Assembly (NCBI GenBank): GCA_049969495.1
Contig: JBMFOT010000004.1
Coordinates: 11,906 to 75,905, forward strand
DNA: 64,000 nt
DNA from: Armatimonadota bacterium
GTDB lineage: Bacteria; Armatimonadota; HRBIN16
Direction of reading: 5' to 3'
Shown: piece after piece, positions 6,825 through 55,455 of the stretch
Layout: each line of letters begins with the position of its first letter
Numbering within the stretch: the first letter of the stretch is position 1
Program-made: the position numbers and the translations under genes
The notes under the pieces: model-generated
What the model was told of the DNA's origin: nothing
The model's input: only the letters and a program-made list of their open reading frames with translations
Database searches by the model: none

Positions 6825-7193
6825 ATGCGGTTTATCACGTTTCTGCTGGCGGTGGCGGCGTGTGCGGGGGTAGTGTATAATACTCAGCAGCTGCGTGAGC
6901 TTCGCCAGCAGGTGGAGCAGATACAGGTGAAGCTTGCCAGCCAGCAGAAGGGTACGGAACCTGCAGGCATCGCCGAGGCGAAGCAGCGTCTCCAGCGTGC
7001 TGTGCAGCTGATGAGCGCAGGGAAGCTGGATGAGGCGAAGAGGGAGCTGGAACAGGGCAGTAAAGCGCTTGCGGCGGTTGCGAACCGAAACGGCGATACC
7101 CAGCATACCCTTCGGCAGTTGCAACAGATGATGGAGAGCGCACGCAAGGAGCTGGCGCGCTTCTGGTCAGGCAAACAGGAGAAAACGCCATGA
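6825..7193 (+). CDS. hypothetical signal-anchored coiled-coil protein
   Basis: Starts 1 nt after the upstream stop. N-terminal hydrophobic helix, then a Q/E/K-rich coiled-coil. Overlaps the next start (ATGA). Confidence 0.5.
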   Translation: MRFITFLLAVAACAGVVYNTQQLRELRQQVEQIQVKLASQQKGTEPAGIAEAKQRLQRAVQLMSAGKLDEAKRELEQGSKALAAVANRNGDTQHTLRQLQQMMESARKELARFWSGKQEKTP

Positions 7194-9796: not shown

Positions 9797-10210
9797 ATGG
9801 CAGCGTTGACGAGCGCGTACGACCCACAGGACAAGCCGGGCGAGCTGGTGAGCTACAAGGTAGGGGCGAACACGGTGATTTATAAAGGCGCGCTGGTGAG
9901 CGTGCGCAGCGATGGCTACGCCTACCCCTCGCGCAGCGGCACCGGTAGCGACGTGTTCGTAGGGGTGGCGTTCGAGAGCGTGGACAACACAGGCGGTGCG
10001 GCGGGCGCGAGGTCGGTGCGCGTGTGGAAGAGCGGCACTTACGTGTACAACGGCAGTGGCTTCACACAGGCGAGCGTGGGGCAAGCGATGTACGCAGCGG
10101 ACGACAACACGCTGACCACCACTTCTACCAACAACCAGCTGGTGGGCTACGTGGTAGAGGTGCTTTCGGCGACGCAGGCACGCATTCGGATCGACAACGC
10201 GGTACGGTAA
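9797..10210 (+). CDS. DUF2190 family phage protein (capsid cement/decoration-like)
   Basis: VFVGVAFESV...GTYVY...LTTT.TNNQLVGYVVEV...ARIRI pattern typical of DUF2190 proteins, which sit between protease and major capsid genes. Confidence 0.55.
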   Translation: MAALTSAYDPQDKPGELVSYKVGANTVIYKGALVSVRSDGYAYPSRSGTGSDVFVGVAFESVDNTGGAAGARSVRVWKSGTYVYNGSGFTQASVGQAMYAADDNTLTTTSTNNQLVGYVVEVLSATQARIRIDNAVR

Positions 10211-10224
10211 GAGGAGGATAGACG

Positions 10225-11151
10225 ATGCCAGCGATTACACGGAGCGAGATGGGCGTCCTGCTGGAGGCAGGTTTGCGTGCGGACTTCTTCGAGGCGTATC
10301 GGCGGCAGGTGGAGTCGGCGATTTACCCGCAGATTGCAACGGTGATTCAGACCGAGCTGCCCGCGCAGAAGTACGGGTGGCTGGGCAGTGTACCCGCGAT
10401 GCGCGAATTTGTGGACGAGCGCATGCCGAAGGGCTTGCGAGTAACTCATTACACCATTCAGGACACGGTGTGGGAGAGCACGATAGCGGTGGAGAGGCGC
10501 GCCCTGGAGGATGAGCAGATCGGAGCCATCCGGCTACGGGTGCAGGATTTGGGGCGCGAGGCGGCACGGCACAAGGACTATCTGGTGGTGAAAGCGTTGC
10601 TAGACGGGTTCAGCCAGGCGTGCTATGACGGTCAACCGCTCTTCTCGAATGCACACTCGGAGGGCGAGAGCGGCGCGCAGAGCAACGTCACTACCCAACC
10701 GCTGAATCCAGACAGCTTGCAGAGTGCCATCTCCACCATGATGCTGTTCAAGGACGACCAGGGCGTGCCTCTGGGCATTCTGCCGGATACGTTACTGGTG
10801 GGCCCGCGTTTGCGCTGGGCGGCGATGGAGCTGCTGGAGTCGCAGGTGGTAGTGGTTAAGGCGGGCACAGGCGACAACACGCCGTATCGCAACGTGCTGC
10901 AAGGTGCGCTGAGGCTGGTGGTCAGTCCGTATATCACGGGCAATCAGTGGTTTGTGCTGGACACCAGTCGGGCGGTGCGCGCGGTAATCCTGCAGGAGCG
11001 GTCGGATGTGCCGGTAGAGTTCTCGGCATTAGAGGACCCGTCGGTGAGCGAGAGCGTGTTTTTGCGGGACGTGGTGTATTACGGTGCGCGAGCGCGTTAC
11101 GGCGTGGGCTACGGCTTGTGGCAGACCGCTTACGGCAGCAACGCGAGCTAA
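10225..11151 (+). CDS. Mu-like prophage major head subunit gpT
   Basis: Size and sequence features match the Mu gpT family (PF10124-like), including the C-terminal ...YYGARARYGVGYGLWQ region. Strong SD GAGGAGG. Followed by a GC-rich palindrome. Confidence 0.8.
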   Translation: MPAITRSEMGVLLEAGLRADFFEAYRRQVESAIYPQIATVIQTELPAQKYGWLGSVPAMREFVDERMPKGLRVTHYTIQDTVWESTIAVERRALEDEQIGAIRLRVQDLGREAARHKDYLVVKALLDGFSQACYDGQPLFSNAHSEGESGAQSNVTTQPLNPDSLQSAISTMMLFKDDQGVPLGILPDTLLVGPRLRWAAMELLESQVVVVKAGTGDNTPYRNVLQGALRLVVSPYITGNQWFVLDTSRAVRAVILQERSDVPVEFSALEDPSVSESVFLRDVVYYGARARYGVGYGLWQTAYGSNAS

Positions 11152-16752: not shown

Positions 16753-17850
16753 ATGGTGTTTTCGCAACTATGGCGTCGTGTAAGGCGGCGCGGACTGGAC
16801 AGGGAGCAGGCGGCGGTGGAACCCATCGCCGCCCTTCGTTTTGGTGGCGCAGGGGATGCGGACGACCTGCTGCGCACGCGCGGGGAGCGGGTGTACGAGG
16901 AGATGCTCACCGACGCGCAGGTGCAGTCTGCGCTCACCACCAAGAAGTTCGGCGTGCTGGACGCGGACTGGCAAATCGTGCCCGGTGGCGAGGACGAGCG
17001 ATCACAACGGGCGGCGGAGCTGGTGCGCTTTGCGCTGGGGCAGCTGCGCGGTTCGGTGACCCGCATCCTGCTGAACGCGCTGGACGCCTTAGCGCACGGC
17101 TATGCGGTGCAGGAGATTAACTACACCCTGTGCGAGCAGGAGCCGTGGCGCGGGATGGTGGTATGGCAGAGCATCAAGAGCAAACCGCCCCGCCTGTTTC
17201 GGCTGGAGACGGACGAGTTCCGAAACCTGAGGGCATTATACCTGCGACTGCCGGGCGGTGAGGAGAAGCCCCTGCCTGCCGAGAAGTTTGTGGTGTATTC
17301 GTACAACGGCAGTTACGAATCGCCGACGGGGCGTAGTGACCTACGCGCGGCATACAAACACTGGTGGGCGAAGGGATTGCTGTTGAAGTTCTGGCTGTTA
17401 TCGCTGGAGAAGTTCGGTGCGCCGACGGTCAAAGGGGTGGTGCCGCGCCATGTGCCCGAGGCGGAGCGGCGGGAGCTGTTAGAGGTGTTGGATCGTATCC
17501 AGCAGGAGACGGCAGTGGTGCTGCCGGAGGACGTGCAGATTGAGTTGTTAGAGGGCAAGTCACCTGTTGGCGCGGCGTATCTGCAGGCGGTGCAGTTTCA
17601 CAACAAGGAGATTGCGCGGGCGATATTGGGGCAAACGCTGGCGACCGACGAAGGGATGCGCACCGGCTCGCTCGCACTGGGCAAGGTGCACTATCGCGTG
17701 ATGCAGCTCTATTTTCGCGCCTTGCGCAGGGACCTGGCTGAGCAGGTGATGGAGGAGCAGCTGTTCCGTCGGCTGGTAGAGCTAAACTTCGCCGACGCGA
17801 AGACGCCGCGATTCGTATGGGTGGAGAGAGAGGTTGCAGGGGAGGGGTAG
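16753..17850 (+). CDS. Mu gp29-like phage portal protein (DUF935), short form
   Basis: AILGQTLATDEGMRTGSLALGKVHYRV and KHWWAKGLLLKFWLLSLEKFGAPTVKG motifs characteristic of DUF935. 365 aa, against roughly 450-520 for typical family members. Confidence 0.6.
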   Translation: MVFSQLWRRVRRRGLDREQAAVEPIAALRFGGAGDADDLLRTRGERVYEEMLTDAQVQSALTTKKFGVLDADWQIVPGGEDERSQRAAELVRFALGQLRGSVTRILLNALDALAHGYAVQEINYTLCEQEPWRGMVVWQSIKSKPPRLFRLETDEFRNLRALYLRLPGGEEKPLPAEKFVVYSYNGSYESPTGRSDLRAAYKHWWAKGLLLKFWLLSLEKFGAPTVKGVVPRHVPEAERRELLEVLDRIQQETAVVLPEDVQIELLEGKSPVGAAYLQAVQFHNKEIARAILGQTLATDEGMRTGSLALGKVHYRVMQLYFRALRRDLAEQVMEEQLFRRLVELNFADAKTPRFVWVEREVAGEG

Positions 17851-45106: not shown

Positions 45107-45481
45107 CTAAAGCTTCTTTGTTTTCGTCTTCTTACGGTACTCGCACACGGGACACTCTTTTTTGTTCTTCTCGCTGTAGTAGCCGCACACTTTGCACTTC
45201 TTCACGAGGCTGGAAAGCTTGACCATCGGCTTCTTGCAGTGCTGGCAATTGCCCGGCTTGTCCGCCATGGCACCACAGCTGGTGCACACGTACGCACCCG
45301 CTTTTGCCATCTGCAGATTGCAGATGGGGCACTTCCCCTGCTTGTCTGCCCCCACTTTGCACATCATGCAGACGTACTGAGGAACGCCCTTGTCTGCCTT
45401 CGGTTTCCCTCCTTTTTGTGCCAGCGCGGCCACATTCAGCAAAAGCACTGCCGCCAGCAAACAGGCTATCGCCTGTCGCAT
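45107..45481 (-). CDS. secreted protein with three tandem Y-x-C-x-x-C...G-x-C-x-x-C Zn-ribbon repeats
   Basis: Signal peptide. Repeats YVCMMCKVGADKQGKCPICNLQM, YVCTSCGAMADKPGNCQHCKKPM and CKVCGYYSEKNKKECPVCEY. K-rich C-terminus. SD GGAGGTGAGG. Confidence 0.6.
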   Translation of the reverse strand: MRQAIACLLAAVLLLNVAALAQKGGKPKADKGVPQYVCMMCKVGADKQGKCPICNLQMAKAGAYVCTSCGAMADKPGNCQHCKKPMVKLSSLVKKCKVCGYYSEKNKKECPVCEYRKKTKTKKL

Positions 45482-45533
45482 GTGTATAAACCTCACCTCC
45501 TTTCAGTAATTTCTCTTCGCCGTGTGGGATGGC

Positions 45534-47555: not shown

Positions 47556-47867
47556 AAGGTTCCTCCTGGTTGCTATGCTACCTCCTGTAGCCGCAACCTT
47601 CAGGTTGTGGCTACAGGATGACGAACAGACGAAGTCAATCGGTCAATATCTACAGAATCATCTGTGGTGGAGCACTATGGCATCTCACATTCGAATTCTC
47701 TCGTGACCGAAGCCGTTCCTGCCTGGCTCATGCTGGTAAGAACAAAGGGTACAATAGGTAACGGTGAGGAAAATCGCGATAGCTGGCATAATTCCTCACG
47801 GAGCGCAACTTTTCGAGCGCGCCCGGTGTCTAATAAGAAATGAAGGAAATGAGGAGGTCGCTTCAAG

Positions 47868-48794
47868 ATGTGGTGGAGAACGATTGCAGCCATCGTAGCG
47901 TTATCCGCTTGCGCTGTCGCCCCGCTGTGGGCACAACCTGCCCCGGGTGAGCCTGAGCCTCCGCCGGAGCCACCCGTGGACGTGCCTTCAGAGCCGGTGA
48001 TGCCACCGCCGCCGCCCGCCGATTTTCAGCCGCCTGCGGCACAGCCTCAGCAGCAATTGCCCCAGCAAGCGCGGCAAACCGGCAGTGACGTGCGACAGGT
48101 TCTGGCAGACGTCGCACAGCGGTTTCGGCTGCAGGTAGTGGTGGACCCGCTGTTGCAGGGGCGGGTGACGCCACCGGCGCAGGCAAAGGACGCTCAGGCT
48201 GCACTGGATGCCGTCGTCAAACAGGTACCTGGCGTCGTCTGGCGCAAGGTGTACCTGCGCGCGGATATGGAGTTGCCCGCTTCCGAGACGCTGGTCAACT
48301 GGGTACGCTCCATCGTGAACCTCGAGGCGCAGGGGCTCATTGTCGCCGATGCTACCGGTAATCGGATCACCTCCTTTGTGCGCAATGTGACCGTATCGCC
48401 GGACTTCGAGCAGCAGCTGGACCAGATGGTTCCGGCGTTCAAGACGCGCCCGGTGTACGTGGTGTTTTACCAGCAACCGATGGTTGCCCAGCAAGCGGGG
48501 CAGCGTGGTAGGCAGGGACAAACACGCGCAGAGGATTTCCTGGCGCTGGAGCAACAGCGGATGCAGTTGTTCATGCAGATGTCGCCGGAGGAGCGTCAGA
48601 GGGCGATGCGCATGGGCATCCAGATGTTCATGAACATGGACCCGTCACTGCGGATGCAGATGATGCAAGAAGGGTTGCGCATGTTCATGAACATGTCCCC
48701 TGAAGAGCGAAGGATGCTGATGGAGCAGGGGATGCAGATGTTCCAGCAGATGATGGGGGGACCGCCTCCCGGTCCACCTGCGCCCGGACGGTAA
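47868..48794 (+). CDS. secreted Pro-rich / Met-rich repeat protein
   Basis: SD GAGGAGG. Signal peptide. PEPPPEPP linker. C-terminal repeats M-x-L/M-F-M-x-M-S/D-P-E/S-E/L-R. Confidence 0.6.
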   Translation: MWWRTIAAIVALSACAVAPLWAQPAPGEPEPPPEPPVDVPSEPVMPPPPPADFQPPAAQPQQQLPQQARQTGSDVRQVLADVAQRFRLQVVVDPLLQGRVTPPAQAKDAQAALDAVVKQVPGVVWRKVYLRADMELPASETLVNWVRSIVNLEAQGLIVADATGNRITSFVRNVTVSPDFEQQLDQMVPAFKTRPVYVVFYQQPMVAQQAGQRGRQGQTRAEDFLALEQQRMQLFMQMSPEERQRAMRMGIQMFMNMDPSLRMQMMQEGLRMFMNMSPEERRMLMEQGMQMFQQMMGGPPPGPPAPGR

Positions 48795-48850
48795 AAATTG
48801 GAAGGCGCGCCTTCGCGCCTTCCACGATACCTGATGAGGGAAGGTGACGA

Positions 48851-49498
48851 ATGGTACTGACAGCTGGCACGCCCACGGAGGCAACAAAAGAGATTACGTT
48901 TAATATGATTGCGCCACTAGACGAAGACATCTTGCTGGTGCGCCGATGCAGCGACGGCGACTCGTCCGCTTTTGAGAAACTGTACCAGAAGTACATGCGC
49001 CTGGTATACAGCGTGGTGTACCGGATGGTGCCCGGTGAGGAAGCGCACGACCTGACGCAGGAGGTGTTCATCCGGGCGTTCAAGAACATCCGCTCCTTCC
49101 GCGGGGACAGCAGCTTCCGCGCGTGGCTGCTGCGTATCGCGCACAACTTGTGCTGCAATCGTCTGCGCGACATGAAGCGAGAGAGGACCGATTCGCTGGA
49201 AGAGATGGCAGAGCGCGAAAACGGCGGTTACGAGCCGGTATCGGACGAGGATTTACAGGCGCATGTGGAGCGCGAGGAGCTGCAACGGAAAGTGCGCGAG
49301 GTGCTGGCGCGTTTGCCCGAAGACTACCGGACAATGCTGGTGCTACGTGACTTCGAGCAGCTTTCCTATGAGGAAATCAGTCACATCACCGGCTTAACGA
49401 TTGCCAACGTGAAATCGCGTTTGCATCGTGCCCGATTGGCTTTTAAGCGTCTTTTTGAACCTTATTATCGAACTTACTGGCAGGGGGTAGGTGAGTAA
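48851..49498 (+). CDS. ECF (sigma-70 group 4) RNA polymerase sigma factor
   Basis: Region 2 (DLTQEVFIRAF...AWLLRIAHNLCCNRLR) and region 4 (LSYEEISHITGLTIANVKSRLHRAR). SD GGAAGGTGA. Confidence 0.85.
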   Translation: MVLTAGTPTEATKEITFNMIAPLDEDILLVRRCSDGDSSAFEKLYQKYMRLVYSVVYRMVPGEEAHDLTQEVFIRAFKNIRSFRGDSSFRAWLLRIAHNLCCNRLRDMKRERTDSLEEMAERENGGYEPVSDEDLQAHVEREELQRKVREVLARLPEDYRTMLVLRDFEQLSYEEISHITGLTIANVKSRLHRARLAFKRLFEPYYRTYWQGVGE

Positions 49499-49500
49499 CC

Positions 49501-49902
49501 ATGCGTTGCGAAGAGGTACAGGATCGACTGAGCGCGCTGATTGACGAGCAGCTGAGCCAGACAGAGCGGGAACAGGTACAGCACCACCTGTACGCGTGTG
49601 AGGACTGCTTGCGGGAATATCAGGAGTTGCGCCGGTTTGTGGAGTTCTGCCGGCAGCTGGAAGCGCCGGAGCCCCGAATTGACCTGTGGCAAGAGTTCCA
49701 GCCGATGCTCGCCGAGATTATCGCCGAACAACGGTTGTCTTTTACCCAGCGGCTGCGCCACCAATGGAGCCGTCTGGTGTCGCAGGTCTGCTACGGCATC
49801 ATCCTGTTCCTGCAGGTGGTAACGTACCAGCTGACCATCACGCTATCGCGCTATATCATGGAACCAGAGCGCCCGGCTTACGGCCGCTCGGCACAGGGGT
49901 GA
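49501..49902 (+). CDS. anti-sigma factor, zf-HC2 type, single TM
   Basis: H-x3-C-x2-C motif (HHLYACEDC) with a C-x-E upstream. One TM helix. Sits immediately after the ECF sigma gene. Confidence 0.7.
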   Translation: MRCEEVQDRLSALIDEQLSQTEREQVQHHLYACEDCLREYQELRRFVEFCRQLEAPEPRIDLWQEFQPMLAEIIAEQRLSFTQRLRHQWSRLVSQVCYGIILFLQVVTYQLTITLSRYIMEPERPAYGRSAQG

Positions 49903-50582
49903 TGACGGTGAGCATCGAAGGCTTCGTGCAGTGGCTGCAAACGCCCTATGCTACCGTACTGTTCACCTTTATTGGGCTGGCGTTTCTGGTGACGGAGTTC
50001 CTCACCCGACCGGTGTGGTCGTGGGTGGGCACGGTGGGCGTGCTGTTTTTAGGAACGGTCTTCGTGGCGCACCTGTGGAGCGGCTCGCACTGGTGGGGTA
50101 TGGCGGTCTTCGCGCTGGGCGCGGCGCTGGTCATTGTCGAGACGCACATCCTGCCTGGGCGAGGAATCTTCGCGCTGCTCGGCTTCCTGTGCATCTTCGC
50201 GGGAATGCGTGAGGCTATCACCATACAATCACATCCCCTCTTCGCGCTGGTGGTCTCTTCGATACTGACCCTGATGAGCATGGTGGTCTTTTTCCTCTAC
50301 CTGCCCAAGAGCCATTTGTGGCGCGAGATGCAGCACCGTATGCAGCTCTCGATGCCCACCGGCTGGGAGGCTCAACGCGAACTGCTCGGTGCGGAGGGAA
50401 TAACCGTGACCGACCTCACTCCGGGAGGCATGGCGCAGATTGGCGGCATCAGCCTGCGCGTGCTCACCGAGCAAGAGTTTCTACCTGCCCACACTCCCGT
50501 GCGCGTGGCGGAAGTGCGCCCCGATGGGGTGGTGGTGGAGCCGTTGAGCAAACCCTCGCACTCCGAAGTGGAGCAGAGTTAA
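49902..50582 (+). CDS. NfeD-like membrane protein (short form, TM region plus C-terminal OB-fold)
   Basis: 4-5 TM helices, then GMAQIGGISLRVLTEQEFLPAHTPVRVAEVRPDGVVVEP. The start overlaps the anti-sigma stop (TGATG). Confidence 0.7.
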   Translation: MTVSIEGFVQWLQTPYATVLFTFIGLAFLVTEFLTRPVWSWVGTVGVLFLGTVFVAHLWSGSHWWGMAVFALGAALVIVETHILPGRGIFALLGFLCIFAGMREAITIQSHPLFALVVSSILTLMSMVVFFLYLPKSHLWREMQHRMQLSMPTGWEAQRELLGAEGITVTDLTPGGMAQIGGISLRVLTEQEFLPAHTPVRVAEVRPDGVVVEPLSKPSHSEVEQS

Positions 50583-50594
50583 TTTGTCGCGCAC

Positions 50595-51440
50595 CTATCC
50601 GTGGCGCCGCGCCCAGGAGTGAAAGTGCTCCTGAAGCCACATCGCGGTTTCCATCATAGATGGCCCTTCGTGGATAATGTTTTGCCCCTTTTGTACCGTA
50701 CCCACCACCACATAAGGCGCAGGGTTCCACCGGTGCCAGCGTCGCTCCTCGATAAGAGCCTTTACGTCCACTGGGTAGTCAGGTTCGGTGTGGAAAAGAA
50801 GCACATCGGGTCTCGCCACTGTTACCTGCTCAAGGTCAGGCACAAAGTAGGCACGACGGTCTCGCCCAAAGATGTTGTCTCCTCCAGTCGCTTCTATTAG
50901 GTCATGGATGAAGCTGAGCGCGCCGACCGTACGCAGATGCCTGCCAAACCACAGCTCGATGTAGACGCGCGGACGACGCGCCGGAGCGGACAGACAGAGC
51001 GTTTGAAACTGCTGTTCCCACCGCTGGCGCAGGCGACGGGCGGATTCCACCTCGTTCACTAGCCCTCCCAGCAGATTCAGGTTCTCCATCACCCCGCTGA
51101 TACTGCTGGGCAGCGGCAGGGCATACACCGGATAACCTGCTTGCGCCAGTTTGATGCCCAGCGTGCGCTGGATGCCGGTGGTGAGCAGTATCAGGTCGGG
51201 GTTTATCTGCCGGAGCAGGGATTCGTCCACACGCAGGTAGTCACCCACCACCGGCAGGTCGTTGGCGGGAATATAGCGGGAGCAATACACGGAGATGCCA
51301 GCCACTCGATGCCCACAGCCCATTTCGAAAAGGGCCTCGGTTAAAGAGGACGCCAGACAGACAATGCGCTGTGGATGGTCCGCGATATCGACGTTCACCC
51401 CCAGCGGTTCACAGAAAACTCGCACCGGATCCCTCCTCAT
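50595..51440 (-). CDS. ABC transporter substrate-binding protein, cluster A-II (BtuF/FhuD/TroA-like)
   Basis: RIVCLASSLTEALFEMG...PDLILL...YALP... Peripla_BP_2 pattern. No adjacent permease or ATPase. Confidence 0.65.
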   Translation of the reverse strand: MRRDPVRVFCEPLGVNVDIADHPQRIVCLASSLTEALFEMGCGHRVAGISVYCSRYIPANDLPVVGDYLRVDESLLRQINPDLILLTTGIQRTLGIKLAQAGYPVYALPLPSSISGVMENLNLLGGLVNEVESARRLRQRWEQQFQTLCLSAPARRPRVYIELWFGRHLRTVGALSFIHDLIEATGGDNIFGRDRRAYFVPDLEQVTVARPDVLLFHTEPDYPVDVKALIEERRWHRWNPAPYVVVGTVQKGQNIIHEGPSMMETAMWLQEHFHSWARRHG

Positions 51441-51570
51441 GAACAGCGCTACGCTCACAGTGTAGCAGTATTTGCAGCGGTTGTAAACCGGCTGGTGTAG
51501 TACCAATCAGGGGTGATACACGATAGCGCTTCCTACACAGGATGACTGCCGTTTAGGCGGGGGGAGGGCT

Positions 51571-51954
51571 TCACAGCTCACGCACGACCCGGGCTGGCAG
51601 AGTCTGTCGTTCGGCAAGAACCTGCTCCACCCGCTCCTGAACCATCTGCTCCATCTGGGCATGAAGTGTCTCGATCTCCTGCTGGAGCTTTTCCACCCTG
51701 TCCAGCAGGTCCAGAATAATCTCCACCCCGGCGAGGTTCACCCCCAGATCGCGCGTCAGTCGCTGAATCTGGCGCAACCGTTCGATATCCGCCTCAGAGT
51801 ACAGACGGTTCTTCCGATTGATGCGCTTGGGACGTATTAAGCCCATGCGCTCGTACATGCGCAGCGTCTGCGGGTGCATATCGCACAGCCTCGCCGCCAC
51901 GCTAATCAGGTAAATCGGTTCGTGCTTGTCGCGAATGCTGTCTGCCATGCTCAC
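51571..51954 (-). CDS. hspR: MerR-family heat-shock repressor HspR
   Basis: MerR HTH ([25 protein letters not shown]). Last gene of the dnaK operon. Confidence 0.8.
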
Positions 51955-51971
51955 ATCCCCCCTGACATCGG

Positions 51972-53003
51972 TTAAACACGAGAAGTCGTTGTCGTGCCGT
52001 GCAGTTGCGCCAGCTGTTGTAGCAGCTCCCGCTCGCGGGAGGTCAACGTGCGCGGCACAGTGACTCGTACTCGCGCATACAGGTCGCCATAGCCGCTACC
52101 CTTCAGGCGAGGCATTCCCTGACCGGCTAACCGGAATACCTGCCCGCTCTGCGTACCGGCAGGCACTTTCATCATCACGCTGCCCTTGAGGGTGGGCACA
52201 CGCACTTCGCCGCCTAAGGCGGCAGTGGTGTAGGGCACGTCCACATCCACATACAGGTCATCCCCCTTCCGCTCGAAGGTGGGGTGCGGACGCATGCGCA
52301 CTATCAGGTATAGGTCACCACGCTGTCCCCCTCGTCCGGTGAGTCCCTCACCGGCAAGGCGGATCTTCGAGCCGTCCTGTACGCCGGCAGGGATTCGCAC
52401 CTCCAGCCGCTTGTGGCGCGGCACGGTTCCTCTTCCCTGACAGTTCGAGCAAACCTGTCCCAGCGTGTAGAAGCCACTGCGCGTACGCGAGGCTCCTGTG
52501 CCTCCGCACTGCGGGCAGGTATCCTGTAGAGTTACCGAGAGCGTGCGCGTTGCCCCGGTATACGCTTCTTCCAGCGAGACCTCTATCGGGTATTCCACAT
52601 CCAGCGAGGCATCGAACACGGGACCAAAATCGGTTTCGGCGGTGCGTTGTCCGAATGCGTCGCCGAACAGCGTGGCGAACAGGTCGCCCAGCCCACCGAA
52701 GCCGAAATCGCGCAGGTCCTGCCAACTGCCACCGCCGGAGAATCCGCCAGGCTGTTGCTGCTGCTCGCTGTAGTATTTCCACATCTCGCCGTACTGGTCG
52801 TACTTCGCCCGCTTCTCCGGGTCGGAGAGCACCTCGTATGCCTCGCTGATTTCCTTGAACTTCTCTTCCGCGCTCTTGTCGCCCGGGTTCACGTCCGGGT
52901 GGTACTTGCGAGCCAGTCGGCGATATGCCTGTTTAATCTCCTTTTCGGTGGCATTGCGCGGCACACCGAGTATGGCATAGTAGTCCTTATATTTGAAGTT
53001 CAT
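51972..53003 (-). CDS. dnaJ: DnaJ-class chaperone (J domain, G/F region, reduced Zn finger, C-terminal domains)
   Basis: J domain with HPD (KYHPDVN). Only two CxxCxGxG repeats ([16 protein letters not shown]). Confidence 0.85.
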
Positions 53004-53030
53004 CGTTGCCTCGCCACCTTCACGACGGGT

Positions 53031-53070
53031 TTATCAAAAGGGGCAGGGCAGCCGTTACCGCCCTGCCCCT
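53031..53070 (-). terminator. intercistronic hairpin/attenuator between hsp20 and dnaJ
   Basis: AGGGGCAGGGC-N10-GCCCTGCCCCT, followed on the minus strand by CTTTTGATAA. Confidence 0.45.
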
Positions 53071-53097
53071 CTATCCTCAGCAGGCAAGGTTGGGGGA

Positions 53098-53553
53098 TTA
53101 CCCAGCCTTCACCTGCACCTTCTTCGGGCGCACCTGCTCCGCTTTGGGCAGGGTGATGGTCAACACACCATCCTTGTAGTGCGCCGTCACCTTCTCGGCA
53201 TCGATGGGCGTGCCGAGTGTGAACGTTCGCTGGAACGTGCCGTAGGCGCGCTCGATGCGCACGTAGTCTTTACGGCGCTCCTCGTCCTGGAACTTGCGCT
53301 CACCCTTGACGCACAGCGTGTCGCCCGTCAGCTCGATCTCCACTTCCTCGGGCTTCACGCCGGGCAGTTCCATGTTAATCGTGATTTCGTTGTCGTCCTC
53401 GCGCACGTCCACTGCGGGCGCCCACACGCGAGGCAGGGTCGGCTCGCTGCGGCGCGCCACCGCGTTGCCGAAGAACTGGTTCATCAGCTGGCTCATCTCA
53501 CGCTCGAAGCGATTCAGCATGTCCACAGGATCCTCCCAGCGCACCAATGCCAT
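53098..53553 (-). CDS. Hsp20/alpha-crystallin family small heat shock protein
   Basis: PAVDVREDDNEITINMELPGVKPEEVEIEL...GTFQRTFTLGTPIDAEKVTAHYKDGVLTITLPK. Confidence 0.85.
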   Translation of the reverse strand: MALVRWEDPVDMLNRFEREMSQLMNQFFGNAVARRSEPTLPRVWAPAVDVREDDNEITINMELPGVKPEEVEIELTGDTLCVKGERKFQDEERRKDYVRIERAYGTFQRTFTLGTPIDAEKVTAHYKDGVLTITLPKAEQVRPKKVQVKAG

Positions 53554-53631
53554 CGTCGTTCACCTCCTTCGTCGTTGAAGTTTTTGGTGCTATCTCATCT
53601 GCCCGCGGTTGCCCGCGGGCAGATATTGCCG

Positions 53632-55455
53632 TTACTCGGACTTGAACTCGGCGTCGATGACCTCGCCATCCCCGGACGAGCTACTGCTGCCTGTCTGTGC
53701 GCCGGTTCCGGCGTAGGTCTGCGACGCCTGCTCATACAACCTCTGCGACAGATGGTACGACTCCTGCTGCAACGCCTCCATTCGCTGCCGAATGAGGCTG
53801 ATGTCGTTCTTGTTGATAGCGTCGCGCAGGTCGGAGATTGCCTGCTCGATGCGCAGCTTCTCGTCCGACGGCACGCGGTCGCCGAGGTCGCGCAACATGC
53901 GCTCGGTCTGGTATGCCAGCGAGTCCGCCTGATTGCGCACTTCGGCTTCCTCGCGGCGTCGGCGGTCTTCCTCCGCGTGCGCCTGCGCTTCCTTCACCAT
54001 GCGGTCAATCTCCTCGCGCGTCAGGTTACTGGAGCCGGTGATGGTAATCGCCTGCTGCTTGCCGGTGCCCAGGTCCTTCGCCGACACGTGCAGGATGCCG
54101 TTGGCGTCGATGTCGAAGGTGACCTCGATCTTGGGCACCCCACGCGGCGCAGGCGGAATACCGGTCAGATGGAACCGCCCCAGCGTCTTGTTGTCGCGCG
54201 CCATCTCGCGCTCGCCCTGCAGCACATGGATTTCCACTTCGGTCTGCCCATCGGCGGCGGTGGTGAAGATTTCGCTCTTGCGAGTCGGAATGGTAGTGTT
54301 GCGCTCGATGAGCTTGGTGAACACGCCGCCCAGCGTCTCGATGCCCAGCGATAGCGGCGTCACGTCCAGCAACACGACGTCTTTCACTTCTCCGCCGAGC
54401 ACGCCCGCCTGAATCGCCGCGCCAATGGCGACCACCTCGTCGGGGTTAACCCCCTTGTTCGGCTCCTTACCGGAGAGTTTGCGCACCAGCTCCTGCACGC
54501 AGGGCATGCGCGTGGCACCACCGACGAGAATGACCTCGTCGATATCCTTCACGTCCAGCTTTGCGTCGGACAAAGCCTGATAGAACGGACCTTTTAGCCG
54601 CTCTACTAGGTCGGCAGTGAGCTCCTCGAACTTGGCACGGGTGAGCTTGTACAGCAAGTGCTTCGGACCCTCGGCGTCGGCGGTGATGAAGGGCAGGTTA
54701 ATCTCCGTCTCCACCATGCTGGAGAGTTCGATCTTCGCCTTCTCAGCCGCTTCGCGCAGTCGCTGCAACGCCTGCGGGTCCTTGCGCAGGTCGATACCCG
54801 TCTCCTTCTTGAACTCATCCGCCGCCCAGTTGACGATGCGCATGTCGAAGTCGTCGCCACCCAGATGGGTATCACCCGAGGTGGCTTTCACCTCGAACAC
54901 ACCATCGCCAACCTCCAGAATGGACACGTCGAACGTACCGCCACCCAGGTCAAACACTAGGATGGTCTCATTGGACTTCTTGTCCAGTCCGTAAGCGAGC
55001 GCAGCAGCTGTCGGCTCGTTGATGATGCGCAGCACCTTCAATCCAGCGATTTCGCCCGCGTTTTTGGTTGCGGTGCGCTGCGCATCGTTGAAGTAAGCCG
55101 GTACGGTAATTACCGCTGCCTCTACCTTCTCGCCTAGGTACGCCTCGGCATCCGCCTTCAGTTTCTGCAGAATCATCGCCGAGATCTCCTCTGGCGTGTA
55201 TTCCTTATCGTCAATGCGGATGCGCTCGCGCGTACCCATTTTGCGTTTAATAGACACAATGGTGCGGTCTGGGTTGATAATCGCCTGTCGCTTGGCGGCA
55301 GCCCCCACCAGACGCTCACCGGTTTTGGTGAACGCCACCACCGACGGCGTCAGGCGGCTCCCTTCGGCATTCGGGATGACCACCGGCTCGCCGCCCTCCA
55401 TGACCGCAACCACCGAGTTGGTCGTACCAAGGTCAATACCTACTGTCTTTCCCAT
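53632..55455 (-). CDS. dnaK: molecular chaperone DnaK (Hsp70)
   Basis: [18 protein letters not shown] and the full Hsp70 architecture. Confidence 0.95.

Follow-up and report, generated by a model that had tools for sequence, protein, structure and literature searches.

NfeD proteins are widespread and have so far been understood almost only as accessories of SPFH proteins and flotillins, and the locus described here raises the question of what such a protein does when it is fixed in a sigma/anti-sigma operon without an SPFH gene. The locus lies on the + strand, at positions 47868-50582 of a 64,000-nucleotide stretch of an Armatimonadota genome (referred to as the window), and consists of four open reading frames (ORFs) encoding a secreted, Met-rich protein (G1), an extracytoplasmic function (ECF) sigma factor (G2), a zf-HC2 anti-sigma factor (G3) and an NfeD protein (G4; Table 1). 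An earlier reading of the same DNA (the original prediction) had reported four co-directional genes and proposed a module for sensing metal or envelope stress; all four ORFs are present as described. G1 and G2 are 56 nt apart, G2 and G3 are 2 nt apart, and G3 and G4 share 1 nt in a TGATG overlap, which suggests translational coupling and supports the reading favoured here. According to this reading the genes form an autoregulated ECF module for membrane or envelope stress, in which NfeD couples the state of the membrane to the anti-sigma factor and is itself induced. It is held tentatively, its probability being put a little short of even.

Gene order and domain content indicate that the conserved core of the locus is the sigma/anti-sigma/NfeD trio, found across Armatimonadota, and that the invariant part of NfeD is its membrane domain with five transmembrane (TM) helices. 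Close loci (related loci are numbered with the prefix L) were collected by a genome scan, a metagenome scan with NfeD as query and tblastn; the metagenome scan with NfeD yielded the same clade only, a word-indexed NfeD search gave no relatives below 71% identity, and distant relatives were reached through the sigma factor. Identity among the sigma homologues drops abruptly from 80% to 54%, and all homologues with a source name belong to Armatimonadota. The order sigma factor, small anti-sigma factor, NfeD_membrane protein was found in nine of nine distant contexts (sigma factor 40–54% identical), each with unrelated neighbours, and the third gene scored above the Pfam cutoff for NfeD_membrane in all nine. 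The accessory domains of these third genes vary. The membrane domain is followed by a C-terminal OB fold in L013, L014, and L017, and is combined with both an N-terminal ClpP-like NfeD1b_N domain and an OB fold in L015, L018, and L034. A PspA/IM30-like coiled coil replaces the OB fold in L016 and L036, with marginal scores (33.8 and 23.8 bits against a cutoff of 33.9), and L019 has no accessory domain. Band_7/SPFH genes were absent from the scanned ORFs of the window and from the called genes of the nine distant and about 16 close loci. The claim that NfeD is here operonic with an anti-sigma factor rather than with an SPFH gene is therefore upheld, and an SPFH gene next to the trio in relatives, which would have meant a local deletion in the window, was looked for and not found.

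The complete four-gene cluster has a narrower distribution. It occurs in the same order in six genome and about ten metagenome loci (G1 68–96% identical), and in every sufficiently long close locus except the lineage of L002–L004; the closest G1 homologues come from hot-spring Armatimonadota metagenome-assembled genomes. The cluster is usually flanked by an S9 peptidase gene on one side and a Peripla_BP_2 gene on the other. In L011, however, the flanks are wholly different: an MtrA-like gene precedes the cluster, and DUF418, pgl, and zwf follow it. As the cluster is kept amid these flanks, the four genes travel together; the same order in all these loci, one of them with unrelated flanks, makes an arrangement by chance improbable. 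In L002–L004 the usual flanks enclose a G1 gene (75% identical) alone, the rest of the cluster being missing. In a blastn comparison of L002, what remains of the trio is ~30 nt from the start of the sigma gene and ~200 nt from the end of the NfeD gene (L002 7061–7400 matches window 50376–50717 with 66% identity), and on this comparison the lineage is one with an internal deletion of ~1.5 kb that spared G1, the promoter and the intergenic hairpin described below. L032, which comes from the same sample, is a different organism and retains the full cluster.

The anti-sigma factor G3 belongs to the class-I zf-HC2 type (35.4 bits against a cutoff of 22.2) and has a complete C/H/C/C zinc site formed by C3, H29, C33, and C36. 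The redox- or zinc-sensitive H-x3-C-x2-C motif of the original prediction, together with C3, is thus present. It is however not a conserved input, as all four ligands are replaced in the subclade of L015, L018, and L034, so that zinc or redox chemistry cannot be the signal for the family as a whole. In this same subclade a DinB_2 gene is inserted between the anti-sigma gene and the long NfeD1b gene (L018 6061–6573, L034 6120–6659, L035 1238–1777); L015 is without the insertion. An alignment of nine family members displayed a conserved anti-sigma domain, the motif EP..D.W.EFAP....AE.R and a C-terminal hydrophobic G-x-[IVM]-[ILM]-[FW] segment, which is flanked by basic residues on both sides and followed by a C-terminal tail of 17–19 residues, with no ectodomain. 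G3 had been described as a single-pass protein. The hydrophobic segment is there, but its highest Kyte-Doolittle value over 19 residues is only borderline for a TM helix in the window (1.62; compare 1.68 in L015, 1.49 in L013, and 1.38 in L018) and, at 0.47–1.02, is below TM strength in L014, L016, L017, and L019, i.e., in four of the eight distant loci scored. With no ectodomain, a weak TM segment in half of these loci and dispensable zinc ligands, the anti-sigma factor is probably unable to sense a signal alone.

The sigma factor G2 consists of the sigma2 and sigma4 domains only (Sigma70_r2, 4.6e-21; r4_2, 1.6e-17). With 120.1 bits it exceeds the cutoff of TIGR02937, the model for the ECF superfamily (42.9), and falls below the cutoff of every named equivalog, models that include RpoE, SigW, SigM, and PRK11922 (the best scores being 134 bits for a cutoff of 204, 130 for 209, and 126 for 236). 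Its PDB matches to AlgU, RpoE, and SigW lie at about 1e-32 to 1e-25, with 2e-32 for AlgU/RpoE-type sigma factors, and that to CnrH at only 4.3e-12. The C-terminus (...FEPYYRTYWQGVGE) is without a Cys cluster, and the anti-sigma gene comes next. The original prediction had likened the operon to the metal-responsive CnrYXH and CorE systems, a parallel that these results do not support: the sigma factor is AlgU/RpoE/SigW-like, a Cys-rich extension is missing, and no CnrX-type domain was found.

G4 had been called a short NfeD. It lacks the N-terminal ClpP-like NfeD1b_N domain in a Pfam scan and hence is not the long NfeD1b form, but it is not minimal either, as five predicted TM helices are combined with an OB domain (NfeD_membrane PF24961, 50.5 bits; NfeD OB domain PF01957, 34.6 bits; both above cutoff). 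In the AlphaFold2 model (predicted local distance difference test score, pLDDT, 75) the five TM helices are accompanied by an amphipathic helix and a barrel of five strands. Foldseek matched it to YbbJ in the QmcA–YbbJ complex (E 2.5e-5), PH1510-C (TM-score 0.84, root-mean-square deviation 1.5 Å), PH0471 and other NfeD OB domains. In relatives an N-terminal signal peptide precedes the five TM helices (N-out), and the charge distribution of G4, read from its sequence, obeys the positive-inside rule. Because of these two features and the C-terminal fusion, in some relatives, to a coiled coil resembling PspA, a cytoplasmic family, the C-terminus is placed in the cytoplasm, and the OB domain is predicted to lie on the same side of the membrane as the anti-sigma domain. 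NfeD is then unlikely to be the extracytoplasmic partner that had been proposed.

An ECF promoter had been anticipated upstream of 47868, and the motif GCAACTT-N17-TCTAA is present there; it can alternatively be read as AAC-N18-GTC. It resembles the RpoE-type ECF promoter, GGAACTT-N16-TCAAA. The pattern CAACTT-N14-19-GTCTAA has a single match in the window, where 0.01 would be expected by chance, and an alignment of the region upstream of G1 from seven lineages contains two invariant blocks, GCGCAACTTTT and GGTGTCTAATAAGA, separated by a variable spacer. In the eight distant trio loci without a G1-like gene the core GCAAC[TC]T-N13/14-GT[GT]TC stands ahead of the sigma gene; in L013 it stands ahead of a G1-like gene and not ahead of the sigma gene. 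A relaxed scan of the window gave no second site. In particular, there was none near the gene for a Cys-rich protein starting at 45496, so that a further promoter proposed upstream of 45481 did not materialize. Shared gene order in relatives and the ECF promoter ahead of G1 agree with the view that the four genes are one functional unit, and they probably constitute a single ECF operon, for which autoregulation is predicted from the promoter. In distant trio loci without G1 a conserved pair of uncharacterised genes for a ~200-residue, N-terminally anchored protein and a ~285-residue protein was seen directly upstream (L014 1235–2730, L016 421–2448, L019 1618–2731, L036 2825–4820), often with a STAS-domain gene alongside.

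Two further elements accompany the promoter. The block upstream of it (TACAAT and an inverted repeat; Table 1) is preserved in all close relatives, including L011 with its different flanks and L002 with the trio deleted, and the arms GTGAGGAA and TTCCTCAC co-vary, both sides being altered in L002 and L011. An Rfam search with this leader gave no match, and its fold was no better than that of shuffled sequence. The sequence GGGTACAAT precedes the inverted repeat, whose right arm lies directly against the ECF -35 and is complementary in sequence to the Shine-Dalgarno of G1. The block may represent an operator, or else a housekeeping promoter combined with a leader switch. The second element is a hairpin directly 3' of the G1 stop codon, with a minimum free energy of -26.1 kcal/mol (z=-3.26), which is found in every relative with compensatory changes in the stem; Rfam had no match for it. 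It is probably a partial terminator or a stabiliser that would raise G1 over the regulators. A scan had flagged the same hairpin as a minus-strand terminator; this was rejected, as relatives do not keep the A-run and there is no gene on the minus strand that terminates at this point. In L002, where the trio is deleted, the hairpin after G1 (6975–7010) has gained TTTTT and so acquired the form of a canonical terminator, and the ECF motif upstream is intact. An intact motif without the trio implies a sigma factor encoded elsewhere or a recent loss.

The secreted protein G1 appears, from its distribution, to be an accessory to the conserved trio, with which it is linked only in the window clade and in one Capsulimonadales locus, L013; the G1 relatives in L001 and L005 are not adjacent to a sigma factor. 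The L013 protein, whose gene immediately precedes that of the sigma factor, shares the architecture of G1 and is truly homologous to it (hhalign probability 96%, E 2.8e-9, 197 columns). The signal peptide cleavage site of G1, PLWA|Q, is nearly invariant among homologues. G1 was also considered as a lipoprotein and this was rejected, as Cys15 of the LSAC sequence is not conserved whereas the PLWA|Q site is. In the AlphaFold2 model, residues ~71–155 form a core (pLDDT 87–93) and residues 221–295 four helices (pLDDT 60–70). The top PDB matches of the core in Foldseek were secretin N0 domains (GspD, LspD, InvG) and a FecR-type anti-sigma factor, at probabilities of 0.96–0.99 and E values all above 1e-3, and the core is tentatively identified as an N0/STN-like domain. 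The sole Pfam match is a sub-threshold one to DUF3106 (18.0 bits against a cutoff of 24.3); the DUF3106 papers that were found deal with eukaryotic transposable elements (Helitrons) and not with G1.

The Met-rich stretch of G1 (residues 222–297) holds 20 Met in 76 residues (26%; 8% for the whole protein) and neither His nor Cys. It is made up of four ~19-residue helices, each opening with an S/D-P-E-E-R cap. A profile search against 1.84 billion representatives placed G1 in a family of 295 clusters. In 145 of these the Met fraction of the richest 76-residue window was determined, and the values formed a continuum between 1 and 29% (median 12%); 27 clusters had at least 20% Met and 58 less than 10%. 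The L013 homologue has only 3.4% Met. Throughout the family the Met-rich C-terminal region contains hardly any His or Cys. In alignments, other members have L, I, F, or W in the Met columns, and the methionines are accordingly understood as hydrophobic positions of amphipathic helices, i.e., as a compositional variant and not a conserved ligand set. Many family members (window 48761–48794; P0185–P0329) end in a Gly/Pro-rich stretch closing with RRP, GRP, or PGR, and this basic, Pro-containing tail may serve as a signal for sorting or anchoring. In a large part of the family (~470–520 residues) the whole unit of N0-like domain and helices is duplicated in tandem; one such duplicated protein (L005 1985–3403) is encoded between genes for a GntR regulator and an ABC transporter, and not next to a sigma factor.

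How the parts might work together can be outlined as follows. In the resting state the anti-sigma factor would keep the sigma factor at the membrane, with its C-terminal helix docked to or beside the membrane domain of NfeD. It would be NfeD, and not the anti-sigma factor, that registers a perturbation of the cytoplasmic membrane or envelope, upon which the anti-sigma factor would be released or degraded. The freed sigma factor would then transcribe from the GCAACTT-N17-TCTAA promoter and amplify its own operon. In the window clade the outputs would be G1, which is promoter-proximal, and additional NfeD. G1 would be periplasmic and possess an N0/STN-like interaction domain, and may most plausibly act in the manner of a holdase, binding or buffering damaged envelope proteins, its methionines forming a flexible, hydrophobic and oxidisable surface. 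The extra NfeD would be membrane-protective, as in NfeD–flotillin and Psp systems. The membrane or envelope stress reading is favoured because the anti-sigma factor is without a sensor and its sole constant companion is a polytopic domain of a family engaged in membrane proteostasis. In Bacillus subtilis the yuaFGI NfeD–flotillin operon counts among the members of the sigmaW regulon (PMC2636767). Flotillin is stabilised by NfeD, which also assists it in capturing unfolded proteins (PMC11222466), and in Acidobacteriota genes for PspA, NfeD, and Band-7 proteins are neighbours (PMC9239133). The signal, the contact between NfeD and the anti-sigma factor and the biochemical role of G1 are inferred, and NfeD may be a regulator, an effector or both.

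Several observations weigh against this view. The NfeD/anti-sigma contact is only proposed, and a conserved third gene in an ECF operon may equally well be a pure effector, as is oatA in the sigV operon. The hydrophobic segment of the window anti-sigma factor reaches TM strength, and ordinary regulated intramembrane proteolysis without NfeD would be possible. The L002–L004 lineage lost most of the sigma gene, all of the anti-sigma gene and most of the NfeD gene and kept an intact G1 and ECF motif, so that G1 can persist without the adjacent trio. Moreover, the PspA-like match is marginal, and the source names, uniformly Armatimonadota as they are, are carried by a minority of the distant loci.

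The most serious competitor is that NfeD is an effector only. The sigma factor would then answer to membrane stress with its anti-sigma factor controlled in a conventional manner, by regulated intramembrane proteolysis or by zinc/thiol chemistry; NfeD and G1 would be co-transcribed protective products, and an SPFH partner may be encoded elsewhere. It is conceivable, although on the unlikely side. The sigmaW control of NfeD–flotillin operons (PMC2636767) and the role of NfeD as a flotillin-stabilising proteostasis factor (PMC11222466) fit it, as do the effector-like appearance of the PspA-like fusion in L016 and L036 and the TM-like anti-sigma segment in the window clade. Against it stand the failure to see an SPFH gene in the window or in ~25 related loci, an anti-sigma factor that has no sensor domain, no credible TM helix in half of the lineages and dispensable zinc ligands, and the strict position and translational coupling of NfeD down to 40% sigma identity, which is more typical of a stoichiometric partner. 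At the opposite end it is tempting to speculate that the NfeD membrane domain is a hitherto unrecognised, SPFH-independent signalling partner of an ECF anti-sigma factor, which would tether a tail-anchored or peripheral anti-sigma factor through its C-terminal helix and convert membrane perturbation into sigma release; the periplasmic ClpP-like domain of the long forms would be a dedicated site-1 protease, and the PspA fusions would unite sensing and repair. This more specific proposal is considered unlikely. If true, it would define a new, Armatimonadota-specific ECF group and the first regulatory function for NfeD, and G1 could, through its STN/N0-like domain, pass information from the periplasm to this complex.

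The remaining alternatives start from the methionines of G1. In an oxidant defence against hypochlorous acid or reactive oxygen species resembling SigF–NrsF–MrpX, a zinc-binding anti-sigma (ZAS) factor would sense thiol oxidation and the Met tail would be a sacrificial periplasmic methionine sink. G1 does have a signal peptide, a segment with a quarter of its residues Met and an ECF promoter, to be compared with MrpX, which has 20% Met and is ECF-controlled and periplasmic (PMC4436054); the zinc site of G3 is complete, and the DinB_2 gene inserted in the operon of one subclade belongs to a thiol-transferase-like superfamily. On the other hand neither MsrP/YedYZ nor MsrA/B genes were found in the window, a high Met density is no conserved trait of G1 homologues, that of the L013 operon being Met-poor, the zinc ligands are lost in three loci, and a structured N0-like domain is not needed by a simple sink. 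Such a function is improbable, and would concern the Met-rich clade. A Cu(I)/Ag(I)/Zn-responsive module of the CnrYXH/CorE kind, with G1 as the periplasmic metal binder, is the least supported reading and a very improbable one. It could draw on the MxM and MxxxM-type motifs of G1, on the Cys-rich secreted protein encoded nearby and on the TroA-like protein encoded convergently, directly downstream of the cluster, which matches the "helical backbone metal receptor" model NF038402 (43.8 bits against a cutoff of 30). The Met-rich region is nevertheless free of His and Cys and its Met positions are variable among homologues. G1 had no Pfam match to LTXXQ, CopC, or CusF-type domains and none at E<=0.01 to Metal_resist or CnrX, a Spy/CpxP/ZraP-type domain was also not found, and Pfam and NCBIfam assigned it to no family of periplasmic Cu(I)/Ag(I) binders (CusF, CopC/PcoC, or PcoE/SilE type). 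The sigma factor is far nearer to RpoE, AlgU, and SigW than to CnrH and has no CorE-type Cys-rich tail. The flanking genes, including the TroA-like gene, carry no ECF promoter motif and are not conserved with the cluster, as L011 demonstrates, and Cu, Ag, or Zn resistance and metal-efflux genes are absent from the window. Of the "metal or envelope stress" originally predicted it is thus the envelope or membrane part that is retained; given the range of Met content in the family and the low value of the L013 homologue, the metal part is not supported.

The neighbourhood of the cluster is included in Table 1. The convergent genes downstream, which code for chaperones as well as the TroA-like protein, are retained in most close relatives, L011 excepted. 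The gene for the Cys-rich protein, which gave weak zinc-ribbon and rubredoxin-like matches, lies beside the S9 peptidase gene in six of 22 loci checked and has no ECF promoter motif. Further away, Mu-like phage genes are interleaved with non-phage genes, an arrangement that suggests a prophage remnant.

Table 1. Coordinates of the four genes, the associated regulatory elements and neighbouring features in the window.
Feature	Position	Strand	Description
G1	47868-48794	+	308 aa; signal peptide, Pro-rich linker, tentative N0/STN-like core, Met/Gln-rich helices
G2	48851-49498	+	ECF sigma factor, RpoE/AlgU/SigW-like; Pfam r2 + r4_2, TIGR02937
G3	49501-49902	+	Class-I zf-HC2 anti-sigma factor; C-terminal hydrophobic helix (~residues 93-116), 17-aa tail
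G4	49902-50582	+	226 aa NfeD-family membrane protein; 5 TM helices, C-terminal OB fold, no ClpP-like domain
ECF-type promoter	47805-47833	+	GCAACTT-N17-TCTAA; conserved core GCAAC[TC]T-N13/14-GT[GT]TC
Upstream block	47750-47799	+	TACAAT (47750-47755), then inverted repeat GTGAGGAA (47765-47772) ... TTCCTCAC (47792-47799)
Stem-loop	48799-48824	+	11-bp, G+C-rich, directly 3' of G1 stop codon; no U-tract on + strand
Downstream convergent genes	50595-55455	-	TroA-like periplasmic binding protein, HspR-like MerR regulator, DnaJ, Hsp20, DnaK
Cys-rich protein	45107-45496	-	129-aa secreted protein dense in CxxC pairs
Mu-like cement protein	9797-10210		
Mu-like gpT major head protein	10225-11151		3e-65
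Mu-like portal protein	16753-17850		1e-72

ECF sigma/anti-sigma pairs and NfeD proteins are each well known. The open-text literature yielded no paper that connects NfeD with an operon for an ECF sigma or anti-sigma factor, nor was an obligate pairing of the two without SPFH found in the searchable literature, a search that did not extend to the group descriptions of the ECF Hub; in the paper that reclassified the ECF sigma factors, NfeD and Armatimonadetes are both absent from the main text. The operon offers a genetic handle on the NfeD membrane domain acting by itself, in a poorly studied phylum, and a possible route by which an ECF anti-sigma factor without a sensor may perceive membrane stress. 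The promoter motif can be used for mapping the regulon in complete Armatimonadota genomes. In addition, an uncharacterised family of secreted proteins (~300 clusters, N0-like domain and S/DPEER helices) is newly defined, and a tempting annotation as a metal sensor is corrected.

Among known systems, RpoE–RseA, AlgU–MucA, and SigW–RsiW are similar in that the sigma factor consists of sigma2 and sigma4 only, that these sigma factors are the best PDB matches and that a class-I anti-sigma factor is encoded alongside, RsiW being of the ZAS type. The GGAAC-like -35, the TCTAA/GTC-like -10 and the probable autoregulation are likewise shared. Unlike these pairs, however, G2 reaches no equivalog cutoff, G3 lacks a periplasmic domain and its TM segment is marginal, and the conserved third gene encodes NfeD and not RseB or RseC. 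The NfeD membrane domain and OB fold of G4 are those of the SPFH–NfeD operons (Escherichia coli QmcA–YbbJ, Pyrococcus horikoshii PH1511–PH1510, and B. subtilis yuaF–floT), long forms with a ClpP domain occur in related operons, and the B. subtilis operon is itself sigmaW-controlled (PMC2636767); here, in contrast, an SPFH gene is absent at every locus examined and the partners are a sigma factor and an anti-sigma factor.

The SigF–NrsF–MrpX system of Azospira suillum (PMC4436054) also combines an ECF system with a secreted protein that has a segment of at least 20% Met. NrsF is however a different, multi-pass anti-sigma factor. MrpX, a small peptide without a fold, has the YedYZ reductase as its partner; G1, in contrast, contains a folded N0-like domain, and there is no Msr gene in its vicinity. 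Nor is a high Met content conserved among the relatives of G1. CnrYXH and CorE are comparable as ECF sigma factors with extra periplasmic or accessory components, but a CnrX-like sensor is missing here, the anti-sigma factor is of the ZAS and not the CnrY type, the match to CnrH is weak, and G2 differs from CorE in lacking a Cys-rich C-terminal domain and in having an anti-sigma gene. The Psp response differs in that its regulator is PspF/sigma54 or LiaRS and not an ECF sigma factor, and in that the window NfeD carries an OB domain and not PspA. Nonetheless, in relatives of the operon a coiled coil of PspA/IM30-like type, albeit with marginal scores, is joined to the membrane domain of NfeD, and the favoured reading shares with Psp the notion that one membrane protein can regulate the very stress response of which it is an effector.

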